From NCBI GenBank assembly GCA_041645215.1, contig JBAZQK010000002.1, positions 15,435 through 79,434 on the forward strand: a DNA stretch of 64,000 nucleotides, in the 5' to 3' direction. The position numbers and the translations under genes were made by a program. This document shows, piece after piece, positions 1,305 through 62,012 of this stretch. Numbering within the stretch: the stretch's first letter is position 1; each line of letters opens with the position of its first letter. The notes under the pieces were generated by a model, which did not search any database, was not told the DNA's origin, and saw nothing but the letters and a program-made list of their open reading frames with translations. Origin of the DNA: Patescibacteria group bacterium (GTDB lineage Bacteria > Patescibacteriota > Patescibacteriia > Veblenbacterales > UBA10138).

Positions 1305-1340
1305 ACGCCATTTATTTGAGTGTTAATTCTCTGCCGGGCT

Positions 1341-1414
1341 GGGGGATCGTCTAATGGTAGGACTCAGGCCTTTGGAGCCTGCTATCATGGTTCGAATCCA
1401 TGTCCCCCAGCCAG
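1341..1414 (+). tRNA. tRNA-Gln (anticodon UUG), CCA encoded
   Basis: Manual fold: acceptor TGGGGGA/TCCCCCA, D-stem GTC/GAC, anticodon stem CAGGC/GCCTG with loop CTTTGGA, T-arm CATGG-TTCGAAT-CCATG, discriminator G then CCA. Confidence 0.85.
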
Positions 1415-4212: not shown

Positions 4213-4512
4213 ATGACCACAAAACTAAAAACCGCTGAACAAATGGAACGTCACTTTAAGGGTATGGCCAATCACTACCGCATTGCGATACTTCTTTTGA
4301 TTGATAAAGAAAGTGGAATTACCGTTGAAGCTATTACTGAACATCTTAAAGCAAACTTCAAAACCATTTCACAACACACTCGCTATCTTATGAATGCCGG
4401 ACTTATCAAAAAACAGTACCAAGGGAGAATGGTCGCACACTATTTGTCGCCCTATGGCAAACACTTTGTCAGATTCATTAAGAACTTTCAGCGTTTAGGT
4501 AGTAAATACTAA
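4213..4512 (+). CDS. ArsR-family HTH transcriptional regulator (second paralogue)
   Basis: HTH-like HYRIAILLLIDKESGITVEAITEHLKANFKTISQHTRYL. Confidence 0.55.
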   Translation: MTTKLKTAEQMERHFKGMANHYRIAILLLIDKESGITVEAITEHLKANFKTISQHTRYLMNAGLIKKQYQGRMVAHYLSPYGKHFVRFIKNFQRLGSKY

Positions 4513-4523
4513 CTAACAACATT

Positions 4524-4545
4524 CTAACATTCTGCAGAATGTTAG
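4524..4545. promoter_or_regulatory. 22-bp perfect palindrome CTAACATTCTGCAGAATGTTAG immediately downstream of the second ArsR gene
   Basis: Same 16-bp core as the upstream palindrome; preceded by tandem AACATTCT AACATTCT. Confidence 0.45.
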
Positions 4546-4709
4546 AGTGATTAAGATGATAAAGTTTCGTGCGCCCAAGCGTGCCATTAAAGGAAAAATT
4601 GTTGTTTTAATTTGACTAATCCATAAAAGCCTAAAAACGAGCTTTTATGGTAAATAAAGAGACTACCTGAAATTTAGGTAGTCCCTAAAAAATAAACAAT
4701 TCTTTTTTG

Positions 4710-5101: not shown

Positions 5102-5815
5102 ATGCCAAGGTTTAAAGATATATTAGCCTTGTTAATTTTACCGATTATTGTAGTCGGGGCTTACTTAATGGTGTATATTATCTGGCGAATGTTCAATCTG
5201 CCGACCAACGAAGCAGCCGCCAACCTGGTTATGGAAAAATTTTCGCAATACGGCTTATGGCTGGTGTTCGTGGGCGCTTTAATTGAAGGGTTTTTTGTAC
5301 TAGGTCAGTATTTTCCCGGAGGAGCGATTATATTCCTGGGGGTGATTTCCGCTGGTAAAGATATTCCCCGCGCTGCCGCGGTTGTCGGAGTGGTTTTTCT
5401 GGCGTTCGCGATTTCTTATACGCTTAATTATTTCCTGGGTAAATACGGCTGGTATAAGTTGTTTTTAAAATTCGGCTTGGGCAGTTCTCTGGCCACGGCT
5501 CAAAAAAAATTGATTAAGCAAGATACGGCGGCTATGTTTTTTAGCTACTGGGACCCGAACCTAGCCTCCCTGACCGCTACCGCGGCCGGCATTTTACAAA
5601 TACCTCTTAAACGCTTTGAAACTATATCTTTATTAAGTATAGCTTTTTGGAGTACGTTTTGGGGTATATTTGTTTACCAACTGGGTCAAAACGCCTTTAA
5701 AATAATGGGCTTAAAATATGTTCTAATAATCTTTGTTATTTGGTGCACAATCATTTTACTTAAACACTATCTTTACAGCAAAAATCGGCCTATAGTATCA
5801 ATTAATGAGCAATGA
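5102..5815 (+). CDS. DedA/SNARE-associated family membrane protein
   Basis: Multiple TM helices; motif GALIEGFFVLGQYFPGG resembling the DedA signature. Confidence 0.45.
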   Translation: MPRFKDILALLILPIIVVGAYLMVYIIWRMFNLPTNEAAANLVMEKFSQYGLWLVFVGALIEGFFVLGQYFPGGAIIFLGVISAGKDIPRAAAVVGVVFLAFAISYTLNYFLGKYGWYKLFLKFGLGSSLATAQKKLIKQDTAAMFFSYWDPNLASLTATAAGILQIPLKRFETISLLSIAFWSTFWGIFVYQLGQNAFKIMGLKYVLIIFVIWCTIILLKHYLYSKNRPIVSINEQ

Positions 5816-6509
5816 TATACTAAACAACATGACTGAATATAAAAAACTAGCTCTAAGTCTTGCCCGCCAAGCCGGTGATATTATGAAGGCCAACTTTGAG
5901 TTAGGCATGAAAAAAGAATGGAAAGAGGACAAATCACCCCTAACAGTTACTGATTTACAAATAAACGATTTAGTAATAAACCAAATAAAAGAACGCTTTT
6001 CTGAACATGATATTTTAGCGGAAGAACGTAGCAGTATAAGCGGTAAGAGTGAATACGTCTGGGTATGCGATCCCATCGATGGCACTATTATGTTTTCCCA
6101 CGGCATCCCGATTTGCACTTTTTCTTTGGCCTTAACCAAAGGCGGCGAGAGTATTTTGGGCGTCGCTTATGATCCTTTTTCTGACCGGCTCTTTACTGCC
6201 GAAAAGGGCCAGGGGGCATTTTTAAACGATAAAAAAATATCCGTCTCCACCGAATCCAGGCTGGACAAAGTAGTAGGCGAATATGAAATGTTTAAAAGAG
6301 CCAAGTATAACATTAACAGGCTGACCGAGCACTTGAATATGGTAGAGGAAGTTAAACTTATGCACTTTTGTTCCATTGTTTATCCATCGTGCTTAATAGC
6401 AACTGGTGATGTAGGTTTTACAATATTTCCGCACACCACGGCTCATGATATGGCGGCAGTTAAAATAATAGTAGAGGAAGCCGGCGGCAAAGTAACTGAT
6501 TTGTTCTAG
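5805..6509 (+). CDS. Inositol monophosphatase family protein (second paralogue)
   Basis: VCDPIDGT and AHDMAAVKIIVEEAGG motifs; paralogous to 3339-4154. Confidence 0.65.
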   Translation: MSNDILNNMTEYKKLALSLARQAGDIMKANFELGMKKEWKEDKSPLTVTDLQINDLVINQIKERFSEHDILAEERSSISGKSEYVWVCDPIDGTIMFSHGIPICTFSLALTKGGESILGVAYDPFSDRLFTAEKGQGAFLNDKKISVSTESRLDKVVGEYEMFKRAKYNINRLTEHLNMVEEVKLMHFCSIVYPSCLIATGDVGFTIFPHTTAHDMAAVKIIVEEAGGKVTDLF

Positions 6510-6744
6510 ACGCAATGGTACAATATGAAAATTTGGATAAAAATTTTAACGCATTTTTGGTTGGTATAGGAATGGTGTCGCCAGCTGTGCTTCAAAATTA
6601 TTTTTACAGCCACAACCATCATTTAAAAGGGCAATACTAAGATTTAACAAAGACTCAAATCTAACATTATATAAACAGTACTATAGGCCCAGCTGAGCTG
6701 GGTTTTGTGTTTATATAGCTAGTGTATTAAGCTGATAGTAGATT

Positions 6745-15660: not shown

Positions 15661-15725
15661 AGTTTGTTATCAAATTACCCCATTAGAACCTGTTTGTCGC
15701 CAATCCAAATTGGTACAGATAGTAA

Positions 15726-15890
15726 TAGGACTTACGCGCTGGCCGCTTGCCGGGCTGGCGGAGCCCGACCCCGCAAGCGGCTTTGGCCAATTTCTTCGTT
15801 AAAACCTCTGCTTGGCGTTCATCCCGCCAGGGCGGGACTCGCTCCAATGCTCGGTTTTGCCTCGAACTTGGCGCAAACGCGTAAGTCCTA
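15726..15890 (-). mobile_element. Structured MITE copy C (TAGGACTTACG TIR family), 165 bp, 5-bp TSD TTACT (plus-strand AGTAA at 15721-15725 and 15891-15895)
   Basis: 13-bp perfect TIR TAGGACTTACGCG/CGCGTAAGTCCTA; ~85-90% identical to copies at 27400-27565 and 53753-53919 with compensatory substitutions. Confidence 0.75.
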
Positions 15891-15903
15891 AGTAATTAAA
15901 CAA

Positions 15904-22030: not shown

Positions 22031-23254
22031 ATGCTTGATATTAAATTTATTCACGAAAACCCGGAGTTAGTCAAACAAGGTACAGCCGCCAAAGGCCGGC
22101 CGGCTGACGTGGCGGCGATTTTAAAATTGGATACTGAGCGTCGCGCTTTGCAAACTGAAGTTGATGGTTTGCGCCAGGGCCGGGGTGACAAAGTAGTAGA
22201 TATTGAGGCGGCTCGTGCTAAAAAGCAGCAGTTAAAAGTCAAAGAGGATGGGCTGAACACAATTTCTGAAAAGTTGGAGGCTTTACTGTCAGCTGTTACC
22301 AACCTACCACGGCCGGACGTTAAAGTCGGTAAGGATGAAACCGAGAATGAGGTCGTAGCTACTTGGGGTGAGCCGACTAAGTTTGATTTTAAACCGCTTG
22401 ATTATATGACGCTGGCGGCTAAGCATGATTTGATTGATATGGAGCGCGCCGGTAAAGTGTCAGGCTCCCGCTTTGGCTATTTAAAAAATGATTTGGTTCT
22501 GCTGGAGTTCGCTTTAGTTCAATATGGTTTAAGTAAAGTTTTGCCGCACGGCTTTACGCCGGTTATTCCGCCGGTCTTAATTGGCGAGCCAGCTATGCGC
22601 GGTATGGGTTATTTGGACCATGGCGGCGAAGACGAGACTTATCATTTTAAAGAAGAGAAAATGTATTTGGTCGGCACTTCGGAACAATCAATCGGGCCTA
22701 TGCATATGGATGAGGTCTTGGCCGAAACAGATTTACCCAAGCGTTATATTTCATTTTCCACTTGTTTTCGGCGCGAGGCTGGTTCTTATGGCAAAGATAC
22801 ACGCGGTATTTTGCGGGTGCACCAGTTTGATAAGCTGGAAATGGTAGTTTACGCCCAGCCGGAGGAATCGGACAAAGAGCATGAATTTTTAGTTAGTCTG
22901 GAGCAAGAAATTATGCAGGGTTTAGGCTTGCCCTATCGTTTGGTGCGTTTATGTACGGGCGATTTAGGCGACCCGTCAGCCCGAACTTATGATATTGAAA
23001 CTTGGCTGCCATCGGAAAATAAATACCGGGAGACTCATTCTTGTTCAACCACGACTGACTATCAGAGTCGGCGGCTTAATATTCGTTACAAAAATGCCGC
23101 CGGCAAGCTGGCTTTGGTTCACATGCTTAACGGTACGGTTTTTACTAATCGCGCCAGCATCGCAATCTTGGAAAATTATCAGCAGGCTGACGGGCGCATT
23201 ATGATTCCAATGGTGTTGCGGCCGTATATGGGTGGCCGGGAGTACATTGGTTAA
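22031..23254 (+). CDS. serS: Seryl-tRNA synthetase
   Basis: MLDIKFIHENPELV N-terminal coiled-coil arm; class II core (FRREAGS, GRIMIP); start moved to the internal ATG. Confidence 0.85.
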   Translation: MLDIKFIHENPELVKQGTAAKGRPADVAAILKLDTERRALQTEVDGLRQGRGDKVVDIEAARAKKQQLKVKEDGLNTISEKLEALLSAVTNLPRPDVKVGKDETENEVVATWGEPTKFDFKPLDYMTLAAKHDLIDMERAGKVSGSRFGYLKNDLVLLEFALVQYGLSKVLPHGFTPVIPPVLIGEPAMRGMGYLDHGGEDETYHFKEEKMYLVGTSEQSIGPMHMDEVLAETDLPKRYISFSTCFRREAGSYGKDTRGILRVHQFDKLEMVVYAQPEESDKEHEFLVSLEQEIMQGLGLPYRLVRLCTGDLGDPSARTYDIETWLPSENKYRETHSCSTTTDYQSRRLNIRYKNAAGKLALVHMLNGTVFTNRASIAILENYQQADGRIMIPMVLRPYMGGREYIG

Positions 23255-23258
23255 TATT

Positions 23259-24419
23259 ATGCCACAAAATATTTCACACCATTCTTGGGTGGAGGTTAGT
23301 GGCAGCGCTTTAATTCACAATTTAAAGCAGTATCGCCGCGCCTTAAAGCCGGGCGTGAGTTTACTGGTGGTGGTAAAAAGTAATGCTTATGGCCATGGTT
23401 TAACGCTGGCCAGTCAAGTGGCAGCCCAGTCCGGTTTAGTGGATTGGCTGGGAACAGCTTCACTCAGCGAAGCCTTAACCTTGCGCTCAGTTGGTTTTAA
23501 ATTGCCTATCTTAGTTTTGAGTTATTACCATCCTTTGCAAGTTGATGAACTTATTCGCGGTATTAAAACCAATATCTCTTTTGTGGTTTATGAAACTCAA
23601 GCTATTAAACAGTTGGCGGTGGCGGCCAGGAAAGCCCGGCAACGCGCCAAAGTGCACTTAAAAATTAATACGGGTATGGCGCGGCTCGGGATAGATTATC
23701 GGGAGGCCAGTCAATATCTTCGTTTGATTAAAGGTGATAAAAATTTATTACTGGAAGGTGTAGCTTCGCATTTTGCCACCGCTGAATCAAAGTTTACCGG
23801 TTTTTTGCAAACTCAATTGGAAAATTTTGACAAGTTCCTGGTGGAAAACAGTTCATTATTGGGTTCAAAGATTTATAAACACATCGCTTGTTCAGCAGCC
23901 ATTAATACGCAAACCGGTTCGCAATATAATTTAGTCAGGCTAGGTATAGGTTATTACGGTTTGTGGCCGTCGTTTGATAATAAGACCATGGTTAAAAAAA
24001 CGCAGCCATATTTTAAGCTGCAGCCGGCCTTAACTTGGAAAACAAATATTATTGAGTTGCAAAAACTGGCGGCTGGAGTGACCGTTGGTTATGGCCGCTC
24101 TTATTTAACTAAGCGGCCGTTAACCATGGCCGTCTTGCCTATTGGTTATTGGGATGGTTATGACAGAAAATTATCAAATCATGCTCAAGTTTTAGTGCAA
24201 GGGAAGTTGTGTTCTATTATTGGCCGTGTTTGTATGAATATAACTATGGTTGACGTCTCTCATGTAAAAAACGTTAAAGTCGGCGACGAAGTGGTGCTGC
24301 TGGGACGCCAGGGCAGGGGAGTTGTAGCGGCCGAGTATTTAGCTGAAAAATCTGCTACTATTAATTATGAGGTGGTCACGAGAATTAATCCGAACTTGCC
24401 TCGAGCATTAGTTGGTTAA
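23259..24419 (+). CDS. alr: Alanine racemase
   Basis: PLP site VVKSNAYGHG; start chosen just after the serS stop. Confidence 0.85.
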   Translation: MPQNISHHSWVEVSGSALIHNLKQYRRALKPGVSLLVVVKSNAYGHGLTLASQVAAQSGLVDWLGTASLSEALTLRSVGFKLPILVLSYYHPLQVDELIRGIKTNISFVVYETQAIKQLAVAARKARQRAKVHLKINTGMARLGIDYREASQYLRLIKGDKNLLLEGVASHFATAESKFTGFLQTQLENFDKFLVENSSLLGSKIYKHIACSAAINTQTGSQYNLVRLGIGYYGLWPSFDNKTMVKKTQPYFKLQPALTWKTNIIELQKLAAGVTVGYGRSYLTKRPLTMAVLPIGYWDGYDRKLSNHAQVLVQGKLCSIIGRVCMNITMVDVSHVKNVKVGDEVVLLGRQGRGVVAAEYLAEKSATINYEVVTRINPNLPRALVG

Positions 24420-24422
24420 TTT

Positions 24423-25559
24423 ATGAAAAAAGCTAAAAAAATTCGCGTGGGAGTTTTGTTGGGCGGCCGCTCGGCCGAACACGAAGTGTCGATTGTATCA
24501 GCCCGTTCGGTGATGGCCGCACTGGATAAAAAAAAGTACGAAGTCATTCCCATCGGCATATCAAAGGAAGGTCATTGGCTGGTAGGGGAGCGGGTAGTGA
24601 ATTTATTGGAGTCGGGAACTAAAATTCCGCGACAACTGGCGCAAATATTGCCGGCCGACCCCATGGTTAAATCGCTTGTTCCTCTGGTACGCAGTTCAAA
24701 GCGCGAAGCTAAGGGTACCGAGATTGACGTGATTTTTCCGGTTTTACACGGCACTTTTGGCGAAGACGGTACGGTGCAGGGGTTGTTGGAACTCGCTAAT
24801 ATTCCCTATGTTGGCGCCGGGGTTTTGGGTTCAGCCGTAGGCATGGATAAGATAGTCCAAAAAATGATTTTTCAGGCTAACCATTTGCCCACGCCTGATT
24901 TTGTTTATACCACCAGCCATTATTATAAGCGTGCGGCGATTAAGTTTCATAAACAAGTGGGTGCCCGGATAGGCTATCCTTGTTTTGTTAAACCGCCTAA
25001 TTTGGGTTCCTCGGTCGGTATTAGTAAAGCGCATAATCAAACAGAATTAGTAAAAGCTATTAAGCTGGCTCTCCAATACGACCGTCGGGTTATAGTGGAG
25101 CAAGGTATTGAACAGGCTTGGGAAATTGAATGTGCGGTTTTGGGTAATGAAGCTCCTAAGGCCTCAATCGCCGGACGAGTCATAACCTCAAATGAGTTTT
25201 ACGATTATGACGCTAAATACGTAGATGGCAAATCACAGTTAGTGATTCCGGCGCCTTTGCCTAAGGAAGTTATGGCTAAAGTCAGAAACTTGGCAGCGCA
25301 GGCTTTTACGACGCTGGATTTAGCCGGTATGGCGCGAGTTGATTTTTTGGTGCAGCCTAGGAAATGGAAAATTTATTTGAGTGAAGTTAATACTATTCCC
25401 GGATTCACCAGTATCAGTATGTATCCTAAATTATGGTCAGCCAGCGGGTTACCTTATCCTAAACTGCTTGACGAGCTGATTAAATTAGCCTTGGAACGTT
25501 TTAAAATTAAGAGCCGGCTTACTATCAGTTATCAGCCTAAATCCTTATGGTATCGTTAA
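24423..25559 (+). CDS. ddl: D-alanine--D-alanine ligase
   Basis: ATP-grasp Ddl motifs (GGRSAEHEVS, FVKPPNLGSSVGIS). Confidence 0.85.
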   Translation: MKKAKKIRVGVLLGGRSAEHEVSIVSARSVMAALDKKKYEVIPIGISKEGHWLVGERVVNLLESGTKIPRQLAQILPADPMVKSLVPLVRSSKREAKGTEIDVIFPVLHGTFGEDGTVQGLLELANIPYVGAGVLGSAVGMDKIVQKMIFQANHLPTPDFVYTTSHYYKRAAIKFHKQVGARIGYPCFVKPPNLGSSVGISKAHNQTELVKAIKLALQYDRRVIVEQGIEQAWEIECAVLGNEAPKASIAGRVITSNEFYDYDAKYVDGKSQLVIPAPLPKEVMAKVRNLAAQAFTTLDLAGMARVDFLVQPRKWKIYLSEVNTIPGFTSISMYPKLWSASGLPYPKLLDELIKLALERFKIKSRLTISYQPKSLWYR

Positions 25560-26434
25560 AGTTTTTTTCTCGTAAACGACGCCGCGAGCGACGACGTGAC
25601 TACTCAAGCCAGTACCATGGCCAGCCGGTAGTTATGAAGCAATTGACCCGGGCTTATCACCGGGGTGGTCGGCCAGCTCACAGTAAATGGTTGATCAAAT
25701 ATGGTCCGCCGATCGCAATGGCAATAATGATTGCAATTGCTTATTCTCCAATTTTTCGTATTCGTAATGTTATTATAAATAACATTCCTTTTCGACAAAC
25801 GGAGGAGCGTTTGCAGGCGACGATGCAGGATTATTTTACGAGTAGGCGTGGTTTTATTTTTCCGCAGTCTAACTTGCTTTTTTTTAGGGCCGAGTCGGCG
25901 CGTCAGGCGCTAAGCCGTGAGATTTACAGCGATAAGGTAGTATTTGAACGGCACTGGCCTAATGTTTTAAGGATCAATTATAATCCGGAGAATATCATTG
26001 CCCTGTGGCAGACCACCGGTAAACTTTTTGCCGTGGATCAGCGCGGCATTATGGTACAGGAACTGACTGGCGTAAAACTATACAATGTTGATTTGATTGT
26101 AGTTGATGAGGTTAACACGGTGGATCATAAGATCGGCGATCAGGTAGCCGGCCAGCAACTGGTTGATCTATTGGTCAATTTGCCCGGCGCCTGGGGCGGC
26201 AGCGTTGGTAAATTCAAGATTGAACGGGTGGCGGTGGATACTCAATTTTTACCAACTGTTGATATTTATACTGCTGACGGCTGGTATGTAATGGTCTCGG
26301 CCGAGGAGAGTATTGATAAGCAGATGCTAGTTTTAAAAAGATTGATAGATGAAAAAATTAAAAATGACATTAACCGCGTTCAATATATTGATGTCCGTTT
26401 TATTCAAAAGGCCAGTTATTCATTTAAGAATTAA
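25547..26434 (+). CDS. ftsQ: Cell division protein FtsQ/DivIB-like
   Basis: Basic N-terminus, one TM, POTRA-like region; position after ddl. Confidence 0.5.
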   Translation: MVSLKFFSRKRRRERRRDYSSQYHGQPVVMKQLTRAYHRGGRPAHSKWLIKYGPPIAMAIMIAIAYSPIFRIRNVIINNIPFRQTEERLQATMQDYFTSRRGFIFPQSNLLFFRAESARQALSREIYSDKVVFERHWPNVLRINYNPENIIALWQTTGKLFAVDQRGIMVQELTGVKLYNVDLIVVDEVNTVDHKIGDQVAGQQLVDLLVNLPGAWGGSVGKFKIERVAVDTQFLPTVDIYTADGWYVMVSAEESIDKQMLVLKRLIDEKIKNDINRVQYIDVRFIQKASYSFKN

Positions 26435-26562
26435 GCGGCGTTAATAAAACTTGGAAGCCGTAACGGCTTACTCCACCGTAGTCCTTAAAAAAGGTGAAGG
26501 AAGGCCGGAAGCTGTGGGGTATTATGGCGTAGTCCCGCAAAGCGGGACGAAGACGGATAAAT

Positions 26563-26767
26563 CCCGTTACATTTCCACGGGGTATTAGACGGACGCGGAA
26601 ATTGACCCCGTTAGAGATGCGGAACAAAGTGTAATTTGTAGGATGTTAATGTGTGCGGAGCGTATCTTACTATATGTTTCAGTACTGAGTGAATCTCTAA
26701 CGGGGTGAATCTGAATTTGCTGCGGTATCCCCGCGGCCAGACCGCGGGGTTTTTAAAATGTAACGGG
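26563..26767. mobile_element. Nested palindromic element (copy E2): outer TIR CCCGTTAC/GTAACGGG with flanking ATAAA(T/A); inner element 26606-26705 with TIR CCCCGTTAGAGAT/ATCTCTAACGGGG
   Basis: Seen directly; same architecture as 52174-52343. Confidence 0.55.
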
Positions 26768-26984
26768 ATAAAACTATCGTACATTTTGCGACACAAAGGA
26801 TGTTACCGGCAAAGTAGTTTGAGTGTGTAATAAATATTATTGACATAAAAATAATCATAATTGGCCGCAGAATTAAAAAATGAAGCCGGTGAGTTGGTAT
26901 AGTAATTGCATGTACCTGTGATTACTTATTACCGATTTTCCCAATTCAATTTACCAAACAGGATTTTATTATTCTCCAGTTATT

Positions 26985-27186
26985 CCCGCCTGCCTAAGCC
27001 TGTCTTAAGACAAGCGAAGTTAATAAAAAAGAAGATTTAAAACTAAATAATAAATAATCAATTATGCGAGGCATATGGCGGGCAGGCCCGCCTGCCTAAG
27101 CCTGTACAAAGTAAACGATGCTATTAAATAGAAAACTACAACACTAAATAATAATTATCGATTGCAAGAGGCCGATGGCGGGCAGG
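26985..27186 (+). repeat. Two tandem ~100-bp direct repeats, each beginning CCCGCCTGCCTAAGCCTGT and ending ATGGCGGGCAGG (complementary termini)
   Basis: Unit 1 26985-27086, unit 2 27087-27186; termini conserved, AT-rich interior diverged; terminus motif also at 50310-50323 (reverse). Confidence 0.65.
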
Positions 27187-27399
27187 TAAAAAATGGAAAA
27201 ATTATGCAGTTTTATGACGAAGTCATAGCTATCTTCATACCCCTGAAATCAACCTCGGGCCATATACGAGGTTGGTTTTTTGATAATATAAGGCCGCGGG
27301 GCTAATTTAAGTGTAACCCCGACAAATAAAGTGTCTGCTAATTATTACACAAAAAACTGTCCGGTTTTATAAAAAGCCACGACTTTATTGGTTTATAAT

Positions 27400-27565
27400 T
27401 AGGACTTACGGGTTTGAGCCAAGTTCGAGGCAAAACCGAGCATTTGAGCGAGCCGTAGTAAAACTACGGTGAGCGAAAAGCGGAGGTTTTAACAAAGAAA
27501 TTGGCCAAAGCCGCTTGAGGGGTCGGGCTGCGCCCGCCCTGCAAGCGGCAAGCCCGTAAGTCCTA
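27400..27565 (+). mobile_element. Structured MITE copy A (TAGGACTTACG TIR family), 166 bp, 5-bp TSD ATAAT (27395-27399 and 27566-27570)
   Basis: 13-bp perfect TIR TAGGACTTACGGG/CCCGTAAGTCCTA; internal hairpin CCGTAG/CTACGG covaries with CCCGCC/GGCGGG in copies B and C. Confidence 0.8.
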
Positions 27566-27717
27566 ATAATAACAAAAACATCAATTATAATGGGAGTAGC
27601 CGCTATTTAGGGATAATAAGAGTTTAAGCGGTATTTGCCTGATTTTAAAGACTATGTTAAACTGAGTATAATATCCCAAACGCTCAGTTATTTATACTAT
27701 AGACAAATATAGGTCAT

Positions 27718-28203
27718 ATGCCAAACTCCCCTGCAATAAATAGCATGACTGATGAGGCTAAAGCCTGGTTAGCAGGTTTTATTGATGGTGAAGGTTATAT
27801 CGGTTTAACCTTTCAAATAAAAAAAGCAACACCAACCTCGGCCCGCACGCCTCGTTATCACCCTTATTTGATAATAGCTAATACCAATAAAGCGGTTATT
27901 GAATATATTCAGACCATTTTGGGTGTGGGCAGAGTTTATAATTTTTTTCCAAAAAATATAAAATTCAAAGGTGCTTATCAAATTAAGATTAGTCAGAACA
28001 ATGATTTGCAGGCCGTTTTAACAGCCATACTCCCCTATTTGCGGGTTAAGTCTGAACAAGCTCGTATAGTTTTGGATTTTTTAGCCAGACGAAAAGACAT
28101 TAAACCTATTACTAGCCGCGGTCACAGAGGCGCGACTTCATTTGGTGAAGCCGATAAGGCTTTATATCAACGTTTATTGGATTTAAATAAGAAAGGACCA
28201 TAA
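27718..28203 (+). CDS. LAGLIDADG homing endonuclease (single-motif, homodimer type)
   Basis: AWLAGFIDGEGYIGL motif; ~160 aa. Confidence 0.7.
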   Translation: MPNSPAINSMTDEAKAWLAGFIDGEGYIGLTFQIKKATPTSARTPRYHPYLIIANTNKAVIEYIQTILGVGRVYNFFPKNIKFKGAYQIKISQNNDLQAVLTAILPYLRVKSEQARIVLDFLARRKDIKPITSRGHRGATSFGEADKALYQRLLDLNKKGP

Positions 28204-28205
28204 AT

Positions 28206-29141
28206 ATGCTGCCGCACTTTGATGATTTTCTGCTTTCATTGCAGGTGAATAATTATTCTAAAGAGACGGTCTATAATTACGAGCGCGACCTTAAGGTGTT
28301 TGAATTTTTTTTGGTTAATGACATAAAATTGAAAAATTTTGCCAAAATTAATAAAAAAACCATAGAACTTTATAAGGCTTATTTGGCCTCCAGAGACCGT
28401 GAGACGGCGACTGGCAAAAAAAGTCATGGCCAACTAACAAGTTTTTCAACTAATAGATTTTTATCTTCTTTGCGTCGCTATCTTAAATACTTGATTGAAA
28501 TGGACCTGCCTACTCCCCTGCCGCCCGAGGCGGTTAAGCTGGTAAAGACTGAGCGAAAGCACCCGCAGGTGGCGGAATTCACTGAACTGGTGCGCTTAAT
28601 TGAATCACCAACTTGGTTAGAAAAAAATAAGGTAGTTGGTTTGCGCAATCGGGTGATGTTGGAGGTTTTATTTGCCACTGGTATGCGGATTTCCGAATTA
28701 ACCGGACTTAATCGGGTACAAATCGACGACAGCGGCCGTATATTTATAACGGGTAAGGGTAAAAAACAGCGCTTTGTTTATTTGACCGAGCGGGCCAAAA
28801 AATATTTGAATATGTATTTAGCTAAACGTCCAGATACACACCCGGCCCTATTTATTCCCTACCGGGGAGGGAATGCCGGTAAGAATAACAGACGTTTATC
28901 AACTAATTATTTACAAATGAAAATCAAACAATACCGCGAGACTTTGCGCATAAATGTGCCAACCTCGGCCCACTCCCTGCGTCATGGCTTTGCCACTTAT
29001 TTGGCGGAAAGCGGCGCTAATCCGGCAGCTATTCAAGTTTTACTCGGTCACGAATCGCTTGATACCACTACCCGTTATGTCCACGCCTCCGATAAATATG
29101 CCGAAAGTACGCATAAAAAATTTCATCCGTTAAAAACTTGA
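28206..29141 (+). CDS. Tyrosine site-specific recombinase (XerC/XerD-like)
   Basis: N-terminal SAM-like core-binding domain; catalytic box HSLRHGFATYLAESG...LGHESLDTTTRYVH. Confidence 0.8.
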   Translation: MLPHFDDFLLSLQVNNYSKETVYNYERDLKVFEFFLVNDIKLKNFAKINKKTIELYKAYLASRDRETATGKKSHGQLTSFSTNRFLSSLRRYLKYLIEMDLPTPLPPEAVKLVKTERKHPQVAEFTELVRLIESPTWLEKNKVVGLRNRVMLEVLFATGMRISELTGLNRVQIDDSGRIFITGKGKKQRFVYLTERAKKYLNMYLAKRPDTHPALFIPYRGGNAGKNNRRLSTNYLQMKIKQYRETLRINVPTSAHSLRHGFATYLAESGANPAAIQVLLGHESLDTTTRYVHASDKYAESTHKKFHPLKT

Positions 29142-43487: not shown

Positions 43488-43560
43488 ATTGTTTCTTTAG
43501 GCTAGAGATTTGTTTATTTCACGCAATGTTTGCTGATATGAGAAGTAGTGAACGAAGCGA

Positions 43561-43634
43561 GGAAGGTTTTTTCCTGCGAGCGTTCATTCTTTTTTGAGGA
43601 AGGTTTTTTCCTGCGAGCGTTCATTCTTTTTTAA
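43561..43634. repeat. Tandem 37-bp repeat x2 (GGAAGGTTTTTTCCTGCGAGCGTTCATTCTTTTTT) forming imperfect hairpins
   Basis: Seen directly; second unit overlaps the 3-prime end of the minus-strand methyltransferase gene. Confidence 0.6.
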
Positions 43635-53724: not shown

Positions 53725-53752
53725 ATTTATAATAACAAAATATAATTATAAG

Positions 53753-53919
53753 TAGGACTTACGGGGTTGAGCCAAGTTCGAGGCAAAACCGAGCAAGTGG
53801 TACGAGTCCCGCCATGGCGGGATGAACGAAAAGCGGAGGTTTTAACGAAGAAATTAGCCAAAGCCGCTTGCGGGGTCGTCCCTGCGCCAGCCCTGCAAGC
53901 GGCAAGCGCGTAAGTCCTA
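53753..53919 (+). mobile_element. Structured MITE copy B (TAGGACTTACG TIR family), 167 bp, 5-bp TSD ATAAG (53748-53752 and 53920-53924)
   Basis: TIR TAGGACTTACG/CGTAAGTCCTA; internal hairpin CCCGCC/GGCGGG. Confidence 0.8.
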
Positions 53920-53930
53920 ATAAGATTAAT

Positions 53931-57011: not shown

Positions 57012-57028
57012 GGCAAACGGGTAAGTCC
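57012..57028. repeat. Terminal remnant of the TAGGACTTACG MITE family (GGGTAAGTCCTAAT) inside a 300-bp noncoding gap
   Basis: 14/15 match to the MITE 3-prime terminus; ORFs 56858-57133(-) and 56970-57170(+) here look spurious. Confidence 0.35.
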
Positions 57029-57166
57029 TAATGGAGACAAAATTATCTGTCTGATGTTGAAGTGTTTTAGTGATCCAGTGATTAATAGTTTATTATCCTT
57101 CGCCCCGCTTAGCCGGGCTTCGCTTAAAACCACTACCCTAACGCCCCCGGAGCATCATAACTTAAA

Positions 57167-61673: not shown

Positions 61674-62012
61674 TTATATCTGGCTTCTGTTAAAAACTGG
61701 GGGACATGGATTCGAACCATGATTACCGCGTCCAGAGCGCGGCGTCCTACCATTAGACGATCCCCCAGTTTTTAACAGAAACTTTTTAAAGGCGTTACCA
61801 CTATGCCAACTTTTAATTTGTTTTTCTCTTTGACGGGCATCTGTATAGCTTAAGTATTTTTCCGTATAAATCAAGTGCCATGGTCTAAATAATTTTGTCG
61901 ACGTAACTAAACCTTTATTATGTCTAGTTAAACGTAACTTGGGTTCTAACTTAGTTATTCCTATATAGTACCTACCAAAATTATTTCGTAGTATATATAA
62001 ATGACAAATCAT
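61674..62012 (-). CDS. Stand-alone small GIY-YIG nuclease (YhbQ-like); ORF has no stop before reading through the downstream tRNA-Gln
   Basis: YILRNNFGRYYIGITKLEPKLRLTRHNKG...RPWHLIYTEKY...REKQIKSW; domain ends ~61772, C-terminal 30 codons overlap the tRNA. Confidence 0.55.
   Translation of the reverse strand: MICHLYILRNNFGRYYIGITKLEPKLRLTRHNKGLVTSTKLFRPWHLIYTEKYLSYTDARQREKQIKSWHSGNAFKKFLLKTGGSSNGRTPRSGRGNHGSNPCPPVFNRSQI
61698..61767 (-). tRNA. tRNA-Gln (anticodon CUG), no encoded CCA; 13-bp leader/trailer helix
   Basis: Manual fold of reverse complement; anticodon stem CCGCG/CGCGG loop CTCTGGA; flanks TTCTGTTAAAAAC / GTTTTTAACAGAA complementary. Confidence 0.85.

Follow-up and report, generated by a model that had tools for sequence, protein, structure and literature searches.

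A LAGLIDADG gene between a dif-like site and xer in Patescibacteria: a likely free-standing homing endonuclease

In a 64,000-nt stretch of DNA from a Patescibacteria group bacterium (contig JBAZQK010000002.1, positions 15,435 to 79,434; hereafter the window), a gene for a LAGLIDADG endonuclease lies between a 28-bp sequence resembling dif, the Xer recombination site, and a gene (xer) for a Xer-like tyrosine recombinase. We consider it likely that this gene encodes a free-standing, I-CreI-like homing endonuclease that has inserted at the dif–xer junction and homes to that locus. Related nuclease genes occur exclusively beside xer, are patchily distributed, have left decayed copies and scars, and are linked to a variant of the dif-like site.

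The LAGLIDADG–xer locus

The central features of the locus, all on the + strand, are as follows.

27644–27672, + strand: promoter-like site, TTTAAA-17 nt-TATAAT (promoter scan)
27661–27688, + strand: dif-like Xer site of 28 bp, carrier variant (inter-species comparison)
27718–28203, + strand: LAGLIDADG endonuclease gene, 161 aa (PF00961, 26.7 bits; cut-off 23.1)
28206–29141, + strand: Xer-like tyrosine recombinase gene, 311 aa (PF00589, E = 1.7e-32, plus a SAM-like N-domain, PF02899)

The TAA stop codon of the nuclease gene (28201–28203) ends 2 nt ahead of the xer ATG (from 28206), and a Shine–Dalgarno-like AAAGGA for xer lies within the 3′ end of the nuclease gene. The 2-nt gap had been noticed in an original prediction made from the letters of the window, and we confirmed it in the sequence; every other feature described in that prediction was also found where it had been placed. 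The nuclease gene is free-standing, again as predicted. It has its own start and stop codons, and no intron or other Rfam family was found at the locus.

The nuclease

The encoded protein carries the motif LAGFIDGEG at residues 18–26, with the catalytic Glu at residue 25; an alternative start at ATG 27745 would give a product of 152 aa. Across 30 homologues, residues A19 to G26 of the motif are invariant, as is the lysine (K111 in the window) that aligns with K98 of I-CreI. An AlphaFold2 model of the protein had a predicted local distance difference test score of 88.9 and a predicted template modeling score of 0.83. When this model was compared with the PDB using Foldseek, the top matches, over the full length, were I-CvuI, I-CreI and I-MsoI (E-values down to 6e-10, template modeling scores of 0.70–0.77). 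The same three enzymes are the nearest solved relatives by sequence, at an identity of only 16–24%. Members of the nuclease family share an extra C-terminal motif, TGRGxRGxTSF…LNKRG, that is also conserved. The model fits the alpha-beta-beta-alpha-beta-beta-alpha fold of these enzymes, with its DNA-binding beta saddle. Motif, Pfam threshold and modeled fold all place the protein in the I-CreI-type LAGLIDADG family. The ratio of nonsynonymous to synonymous divergence was 0.2–0.3 for intact nuclease copies versus 0.06 for xer, and the intact copies appear to be under purifying selection. Single-motif LAGLIDADG enzymes act as homodimers on 22-bp pseudo-palindromes, and I-CreI-type cleavage leaves 4-nt 3′ overhangs. 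The protein is predicted to be a nuclease of this kind.

The recombinase

The Xer catalytic motifs GMRISE, HSLRHGFAT, LLGHES and TRYVH are all present in the translated recombinase, as expected of a Xer-family protein with the catalytic R-K-H-R-H-Y residues. Its nearest solved relative is XerD (1A0P, E = 1.7e-25). Against the curated equivalog models it scored 195.8 bits for XerC (cut-off 335), 184.9 for XerD (330), 167.9 for XerA (220) and 88.6 for XerS (NF003462; 267). By these scores the recombinase is a separate Xer subfamily, here called type A, outside the XerC, XerD, XerA and XerS equivalogs. A second paralogue, type B, is 32–35% identical to type A and lies directly upstream of the type-A gene in some Dehalococcoidia; type-B orthologues in genomes of the candidate phyla radiation (CPR) are 46–49% identical. 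One match to the Xer catalytic domain (73 bits) was chain 14 of PDB entry 9i5v, a 401-residue chain deposited as ‘ribosome-associated translation inhibitor RaiA’, a name that seems inconsistent with its sequence.

Taking one genome per species, we found 80 loci whose product is 66–92% identical, over its full length, to the window recombinase. These type-A loci span many Patescibacteria lineages as well as Dehalococcoidia, and hence two phyla. In Patescibacteria, xer is typically preceded by serS-alr-ddl-ftsQ and followed by a convergent block of M23 peptidase, gltX and ligT/NUDIX genes; an alternative neighborhood is gltX-M23-xer. The nuclease gene was absent from 78 of these 80 loci. The two carriers were L024 and L013, the latter a Kerfeldbacteria metagenome-assembled genome (MAG) that is the closest available relative of the window (Xer 92% identical). 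From its conservation across these genomes, we regard the recombinase as a housekeeping chromosomal Xer.

Distribution of the nuclease gene

Homology searches identified ∼60 close homologues of the nuclease (40–86% identity, ∼155 aa), from groundwater and sediment metagenomes and from CPR MAGs. The family is small, since an exhaustive profile search of 1.84 billion cluster representatives returned only three above 190 bits. On viral contigs, the LAGLIDADG relatives were all distant (at most 38% identical), and the dif-like site had no exact match.

In every distinct locus with an intact family member and enough flanking sequence (26/26), the nuclease gene lies next to an xer gene on the same strand. 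The pairing is therefore recurrent and not peculiar to this genome, in line with the original prediction. Two arrangements were seen. In the window and 14 other distinct loci, the nuclease gene occupies the interval between the dif-like site and type-A xer, with the site on its upstream side, and it overlaps xer or ends within a few nucleotides of it. In 12 distinct loci, it lies directly downstream of type-B xer. In L004, the nuclease gene is 445 bp upstream of a type-B xer that occupies the position that synteny assigns to type-A xer.

In the type-A Xer tree, carriers fall at six or more separate places, and each carrier Xer groups with nuclease-free neighbors. The nuclease tree conflicts with the Xer trees at several points. 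One case is the nuclease of L099, whose gene lies upstream of type-A xer but which falls within a group of nucleases encoded downstream of type-B xer. All of these trees were made by neighbor joining and carry no support values.

The dif-like site and its variant in carriers

In nuclease-free genomes the consensus of the dif-like site is ACTGAGTATAA-TATCCC-TTACACTCAGT, seen in continuous form in one relative as ACTGAGTATAATATCCCTTACACTCAGT. It has an 11-6-11 architecture, with two inverted 11-bp arms (10/11 symmetric) about a 6-bp center; the half-sites of the pseudo-palindrome are GAGTATAA and GAGTGTAA. A scan of nuclease-free genomes located the site ahead of type-A xer in 72 distinct loci, with both phyla represented, usually 5–60 bp from the xer start and in intergenic DNA that is otherwise unalignable. 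In the window it reads ACTGAGTATAA-TATCCC-AAACGCTCAGT and occurs once in 64 kb, where none is expected by chance. It lies beside xer but outside the features listed in the original prediction, which had pointed to the termini of upstream repeats as possible recombinase core sites. It is nonetheless the one feature that makes sense of the locus.

The window site differs from the consensus at the first base of the right arm, and this difference tracks the nuclease gene.

Intact type-A carriers: A in 14 of 15, T in 1 (L095)
Decayed or deleted copies with readable upstream sequence (L118 and L084): A in 2 of 2, T in 0
Nuclease-free loci: A in 2 of 72 (L019 and L070), T in 70

The link between A/T identity and the nuclease was highly significant (Fisher p = 9e-12, calculated when 13 carriers had been tabulated). 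Right arms in carriers begin with AAAC, AAAT or AACC. In L253, the nuclease ATG follows the site at the same TTAAATATG spacing as does the xer ATG in nuclease-free L017 and L021, suggesting that the nuclease gene took over the start signals of xer.

Several lines of evidence suggest that the site functions as dif. Sixteen of its 28 positions are shared with the Pyrococcus abyssi dif used experimentally. About 15 of the 28 match E. coli dif. In the 49 species whose sequence extends 4.5 kb or more to either side of xer, top-strand GC skew was +0.062 on the left of the gene and –0.036 on its right, and left skew exceeded right skew at 45 of the 49 loci (Wilcoxon p = 2e-11). A shift of ∼0.07–0.085 persists among genes of the same orientation, and gene orientation converges on the locus. 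Both the skew shift and the converging orientation are as predicted for a terminus-proximal dif. This multi-species test was used in place of GC skew in the window alone, which is ambiguous because gene strand confounds it. In the literature searched, no dif site has been reported for Patescibacteria. From its sequence and position, we infer that the 28-bp site is probably the dif of the chromosome. Elsewhere in the window, a perfect 37-bp tandem duplication (GAGGAAGGTTTTTTCCTGCGAGCGTTCATTCTTTTTT, two copies; 43559–43632) coincides with a flip in gene orientation from + to – and with the cumulative GC-skew peak; this point is the apparent replication terminus of the window.

The site also seems to be part of a promoter. 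A TATAAT –10 hexamer lies inside its left arm, and the promoter-like match that includes this hexamer is best on the + strand (10/12), in a scan that as a whole was not above chance. In L046, L049 and L067, TTGACA or TTGACT is found 17 nt upstream of the same TATAAT. The promoter-like site probably drives a LAGLIDADG–xer transcript, and the dif-like site probably overlaps the xer promoter, an overlap that would permit autoregulation. Yet in several Paceibacteria-type loci the site lies on the strand opposite to xer, which means that a promoter role alone does not account for it.

The dif-like site is missing from Dehalococcoidia in which type-B and type-A xer lie in tandem. In these genomes, an open reading frame (ORF) of ∼190 aa ends exactly at the type-A xer ATG, the same position as that of the LAGLIDADG gene in CPR genomes (L030, 5418–5996; L044; L043, 1175–1726; L033, frameshifted; L068, truncated; L074). 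Pfam and PDB sequence searches with this ORF gave only a sub-threshold hint of a PD-(D/E)XK nuclease (PF08011, E = 0.047). One possibility is that this is a different, unrelated nuclease gene that has landed in the same place.

Decayed copies, scars and divergence

As the original prediction would have it, the nuclease gene behaves as mobile DNA, with decayed copies in addition to its patchy distribution. Beside intact xer genes, the nuclease gene is frameshifted in L112 and truncated in L115 and L118. In L084 (∼5735–5860), which was scored as nuclease-free, 22 codons of the nuclease N-terminus (…EKAWLAGFID) are fused to the xer start, with a run of N in the contig just past the remnant. This locus retains the variant site, …TTACCC-AACTGCTCACT, and the fusion is, to judge from its sequence, a deletion scar.

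Other loci have duplicated ends of xer. In L093, a variant site (95–122) is followed by a duplicate of the first 25 codons of xer (160–235), then the nuclease gene (418–893) and a complete xer. The duplicate stops inside the conserved …TVY|NYERDL motif, and the arrangement looks to be an insertion scar with its junction within the xer coding sequence. In loci with type-B xer only, a remnant of the type-A xer 3′ end, comprising the last ∼20 codons (…ASDRYAERIFRKYHPLKE*), was found downstream of the nuclease gene at these positions.

L008: 6464–6532
L102: 5450–5491
L103: ∼5440–5498
L104: 5433–5495
L110: 1416–1466

Often, a remnant of the 3′ end of type-B xer comes next, in some cases broken by a GC-rich hairpin. 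The presence of type-A remnants at type-B loci points to past replacement or destruction of type-A xer there. We searched the type-B loci for the dif-like site or a shared non-coding motif and found neither; the k-mers that they share are coding or belong to the xer-end remnants. In several type-B loci, a second, unrelated LAGLIDADG ORF (MNITK…GCFDLQFRRD…) is stacked behind the xer-associated nuclease gene (L255, 4529–5014; L256, 4529–5017; also L097, L101 and L114). The locus appears to be a hotspot for the stacking of different nuclease genes and for the exchange or destruction of xer paralogues.

Divergence between carriers is lowest in and near the nuclease gene. For the window and L013, synonymous divergence was 0.26 in the nuclease gene, 0.45–0.51 in xer codons 1–140 and 1.3–2.3 in codons 141–311. 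For L024 and L098, it was 0.62 in the nuclease gene and 0.53 in the first 70 codons of xer, with the far part of xer saturated. In both pairs the gradient resembles a co-conversion tract.

Upstream tract and neighboring genes

The genes upstream of the locus, and the features of the 1.3-kb tract that separates them from it, are listed here.

23232–24419: alr (ORF call and Pfam)
24423–25559: ddl (ORF call and Pfam)
25547–26434, + strand: FtsQ-like ORF (PF03799, E = 7.5e-4, 20.8 bits; a weak match just below the cut-off)
26435–27717: non-coding tract of 1,283 bp, with no ORF of 70 aa or more
26561–26574/26756–26769: nested inverted repeats, outer pair (14 nt, 100%)
26601–26618/26693–26710: nested inverted repeats, inner pair (18 nt, 94%)
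26729–26749: terminator-like hairpin, within the nested repeats (26561–26769)
26985–27086 and 27087–27186: tandem units of ∼101 bp (74.5% identical)
27238–27281: hairpin of 44 bp
27393–27572, + strand: element of 180 nt resembling a miniature inverted-repeat transposable element (MITE), with 24-nt terminal inverted repeats
53746–53923, + strand: copy of the MITE-like element (84% identical)
15720–15901, – strand: copy of the MITE-like element (82% identical)
57012–57047: fragment of the MITE-like element

Both ∼101-bp units begin with CCCGCCTGCC and end with GGCGGGCAGG, and these termini are complementary. The MITE-like element folds far better than shuffled sequence (z = –10.6), and among its copies an internal hairpin varies by compensating changes (GCCGTAGTAAAACTACGGT versus GTCCCGCCATGGCGGGAT). 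Rfam searches of the tract, at both gathering and permissive thresholds, identified no intron, ribozyme or known RNA, and the MITE-like element had no Rfam match. The best permissive match, to a Bacillus small RNA (32 bits versus a cut-off of 60), was made through the terminator-like hairpin and was rejected. In L013, only the last 83 bp of the tract (27635–27717) and the 44-bp hairpin (27238–27281) could be aligned, and in the carrier L004 the nuclease gene begins just 23 bp past ftsQ. Because the tract is scarcely conserved in L013, the MITE-like element is dispersed and L004 has so short a spacer, we conclude that positions 26435–27634 are lineage-specific filler, unrelated to the nuclease and recombinase.

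The FtsQ-like gene is the last of the serS-alr-ddl-ftsQ block that precedes xer, and the order is the same in L006, L013, L015, L017, L020 and L021. The original prediction had expected ftsA-ftsZ after ftsQ. These are not the expected neighbors in this lineage, because conserved synteny puts xer there. Nuclease-free L015 (∼5390–5850) and L017 (∼4220–4690) have a conserved ORF of ∼150 aa in the interval from ftsQ to the dif-like site, and an AT-decayed version was seen in L021. We looked for this ORF in the window tract and found it absent, as it is from L013. A short TATATTTTGCGACGCTTGAG-like motif directly follows the ftsQ stop codon in L015, L017 and L021; in L004 it is found inverted just past the nuclease gene (6490–6515).

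A tRNA scan revealed no tRNA gene near the locus. Two tRNA-Gln genes lie near the ends of the window, at 1340–1413 (+ strand, anticodon TTG) and 61696–61768 (– strand, CTG). They are in inverted orientation and 86% complementary over 72 nt.

Discussion

Under the interpretation that we favor, a selfish nuclease gene would have inserted into the few bases between the dif-like site, which holds the –10 box of the xer promoter, and the xer start codon. The inserted gene would capture the transcription and translation start signals of xer and be co-expressed with it. The I-CreI-like protein would act as a homodimer on a pseudo-palindromic target of ∼22 bp, most likely located in the nuclease-free allele and comprising either the 28-bp dif-like site or its right half together with the xer junction. 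The dif-like site is the preferred candidate because it is the clearest pseudo-palindrome at the locus and the only sequence there that is conserved across species at the nucleotide level. A nuclease-free allele, once cut, would be repaired from a carrier chromosome by double-strand-break repair, and the nuclease gene would be copied in with a short flanking tract. I-CreI contacts the ±3–5 triplet of its target directly. If the window enzyme were centered on the dif-like site, the T-to-A change at the first right-arm base would be at position +4, within this triplet. We propose that this is an immunity change, which would protect carriers from self-cleavage.

A bolder version, which we regard as tentative and somewhat doubtful, is that the target is dif itself, and that the nuclease gene plus the T-to-A variant constitute a gene-drive-like ‘selfish dif allele’. 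Such an allele would convert wild-type dif–xer loci of related CPR cells after DNA uptake, and replacement, duplication or loss of xer genes at the terminus would be by-products. In a stronger form still, the protein would in addition have come to work together with Xer at the altered right arm.

Several observations weigh against parts of this interpretation. The T-to-A position is also at about +1 of the overlapping promoter, and the change could be an adaptation of expression. Junctions in L093 and the type-B loci lie inside xer coding sequence, which fits either a target or illegitimate repair within xer; the enzymes of some lineages may cut within xer, or the scars may be one-sided illegitimate repair junctions like those of T4. 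In the window, gene orientation and GC skew switch at ∼43.5 kb, 16 kb from the site, and the profile-based prediction of Kono et al. gives a different, AT-rich dif for Dehalococcoides. Synonymous divergence of neighboring genes between the window and L013 varies from 0.33 (ndk) to 0.99, and the estimates are noisy and saturate fast. Windowed amino-acid identity of Xer gave no signal of a converted xer 5′ end common to carriers across clades.

The junctions just mentioned bear most directly on where the enzyme cuts. The same selfish nuclease might cut in conserved xer coding sequence, at codons for either the N-terminal …YSxETIYNYERDL… motif or the C-terminal …HRKFH… motif, in which case the site variant would be a hitch-hiking or promoter mutation. 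The xer remnant in L093 ends exactly after the …SYSPGTVY codons, inside the most conserved N-terminal motif; at type-B loci the nuclease gene starts in or just after the …HRKFH codons, with xer 3′-end remnants following; T4 free-standing endonucleases cut away from their own genes; and the changed base is near +1 of a promoter-like site. We nevertheless judge this reading unlikely. The variant is present in nearly all intact type-A carriers, which come from different clades, and L093 has it although a recipient-derived xer remnant parts the site from the nuclease gene. Moreover, a homodimer suits a pseudo-palindrome, of which the dif-like site is the clearest example at the locus, and the xer termini are conserved as protein but far less as DNA. 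A larger departure is that there is no mobile nuclease at all and the LAGLIDADG protein is a domesticated accessory or regulator of Xer, which would act by binding the altered right arm or by repressing the shared promoter. A LAGLIDADG fold has been domesticated in WhiA, and I-TevI is a homing endonuclease that doubles as an autorepressor. The complete association with two types of xer paralogue, an arrangement suggestive of translational coupling, the purifying selection and a right arm that could bind a new partner are all compatible with domestication. But the nuclease is missing beside nearly all of the closest Xer orthologues (78/80), and frameshifted, truncated and deleted copies sit beside intact xer. 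The catalytic Glu and Lys are invariant, unlike those of degenerate domesticated folds; the xer-end duplication scars and the divergence gradient point to invasion; and in some genomes a second, unrelated LAGLIDADG gene is stacked at the locus. Domestication thus seems improbable.

Least probable of all is the view put forward in the original prediction, that a single composite mobile element is made up of the nuclease, the recombinase and the repeats or structured RNA. We consider it very improbable and largely refuted. What speaks for it is that the nuclease–xer adjacency recurs beyond this genome, that L004 has a type-B Xer and nuclease in place of the conserved Xer at the syntenic position, and that type-A xer remnants lie beside type-B xer and nuclease genes, indicating that recombinase genes are sometimes exchanged at the locus. 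However, xer keeps its synteny and is 66–77% identical between species of two phyla, whether or not the nuclease is present, and the carrier Xer proteins group with nuclease-free neighbors in the tree. Given this conserved synteny, the adjacent dif-like site and the many relatives without the nuclease, the recombinase does not belong to a mobile module. It is a conserved chromosomal Xer beside a recognizable dif-like site and, unlike an integrase found only with its element, mostly occurs without the nuclease. These observations amount to half of what the original prediction had said would refute it. Nor do the repeats fit. Conservation of the tract breaks down even in the closest relative, other carriers lack it, and copies of the MITE-like element are scattered in the genome. 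Rfam gave no match, no close relative was found on viral contigs, and nothing in the analysis suggests the RNA guides that had been envisaged. The finding is thus more than a chance adjacency, though for a reason other than the one originally proposed.

Comparison with known systems

In our reading, the locus represents a rare free-standing LAGLIDADG homing endonuclease lineage specialized on the dif–xer locus of CPR bacteria. It is of a kind already known, but in the literature searched we found no description of a free-standing LAGLIDADG gene tied to an xer/dif locus. To our knowledge, free-standing LAGLIDADG genes are rare in bacterial chromosomes. Independent of the nuclease, the site and recombinase can be put forward as a candidate dif/xer module, new for Patescibacteria and Dehalococcoidia, and the candidate site differs in sequence from the published Dehalococcoides prediction. 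If dif is the target, then a selfish nuclease exploits the one site that a circular chromosome cannot easily change, and the protein would be a compact natural meganuclease with a defined candidate target of 22–28 bp.

The closest structural counterparts, I-CreI, I-MsoI and I-CvuI, are likewise proteins of ∼160 aa with one motif that includes a catalytic acidic residue, and they share the fold of the window protein, C-terminal helices included. Their targets are 22-bp pseudo-palindromes, and the dif-like site has a matching symmetry. Unlike the window nuclease, which is free-standing in a bacterial chromosome, they are encoded in group I introns of algal chloroplast 23S rRNA genes. In mode of residence, a better parallel is provided by the seg and mob genes of T-even phages. 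These also lie between or beside conserved host genes, outside any intron or intein, and are patchily present. They spread by double-strand-break repair with co-conversion of flanks, and carriers differ from non-carriers near the cut site. The free-standing endonucleases of T4 have been described as agents of ‘intronless homing’, and one-sided illegitimate repair junctions have been described for them. The seg and mob products, however, are GIY-YIG or HNH enzymes encoded in phage genomes, with spread during co-infection, whereas the window nuclease is a LAGLIDADG protein found in CPR chromosomes and always at one locus.

The site and recombinase can be compared with several Xer systems. In streptococci and lactococci, difSL adjoins the gene for its own recombinase, xerS, so that the two form one module near the terminus; the site here likewise adjoins xer. 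But difSL is 31 bp with an 11-bp center, and XerS is a distinct family of 356-aa proteins; the window site has the classical 11-6-11 form. In this respect it resembles the dif sites of archaeal XerA and bacterial XerCD, which are also 28 bp with an 11-6-11 layout and a TATAA…TTA inner core. Archaeal dif is not adjacent to xerA, whereas the window site adjoins its xer locus. The window recombinase matches the XerC, XerD and XerA models yet misses every equivalog cut-off. Finally, integrative mobile elements exploiting Xer (IMEX), such as CTX phage, are also selfish DNAs that use the single, highly conserved dif locus as a landing site. Those elements hijack the host Xer proteins and carry a dif-like phage attachment site (attP). 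By contrast, the element described here carries a nuclease gene, lacks a second, attP-like copy of the site, and would depend on break repair for its spread.

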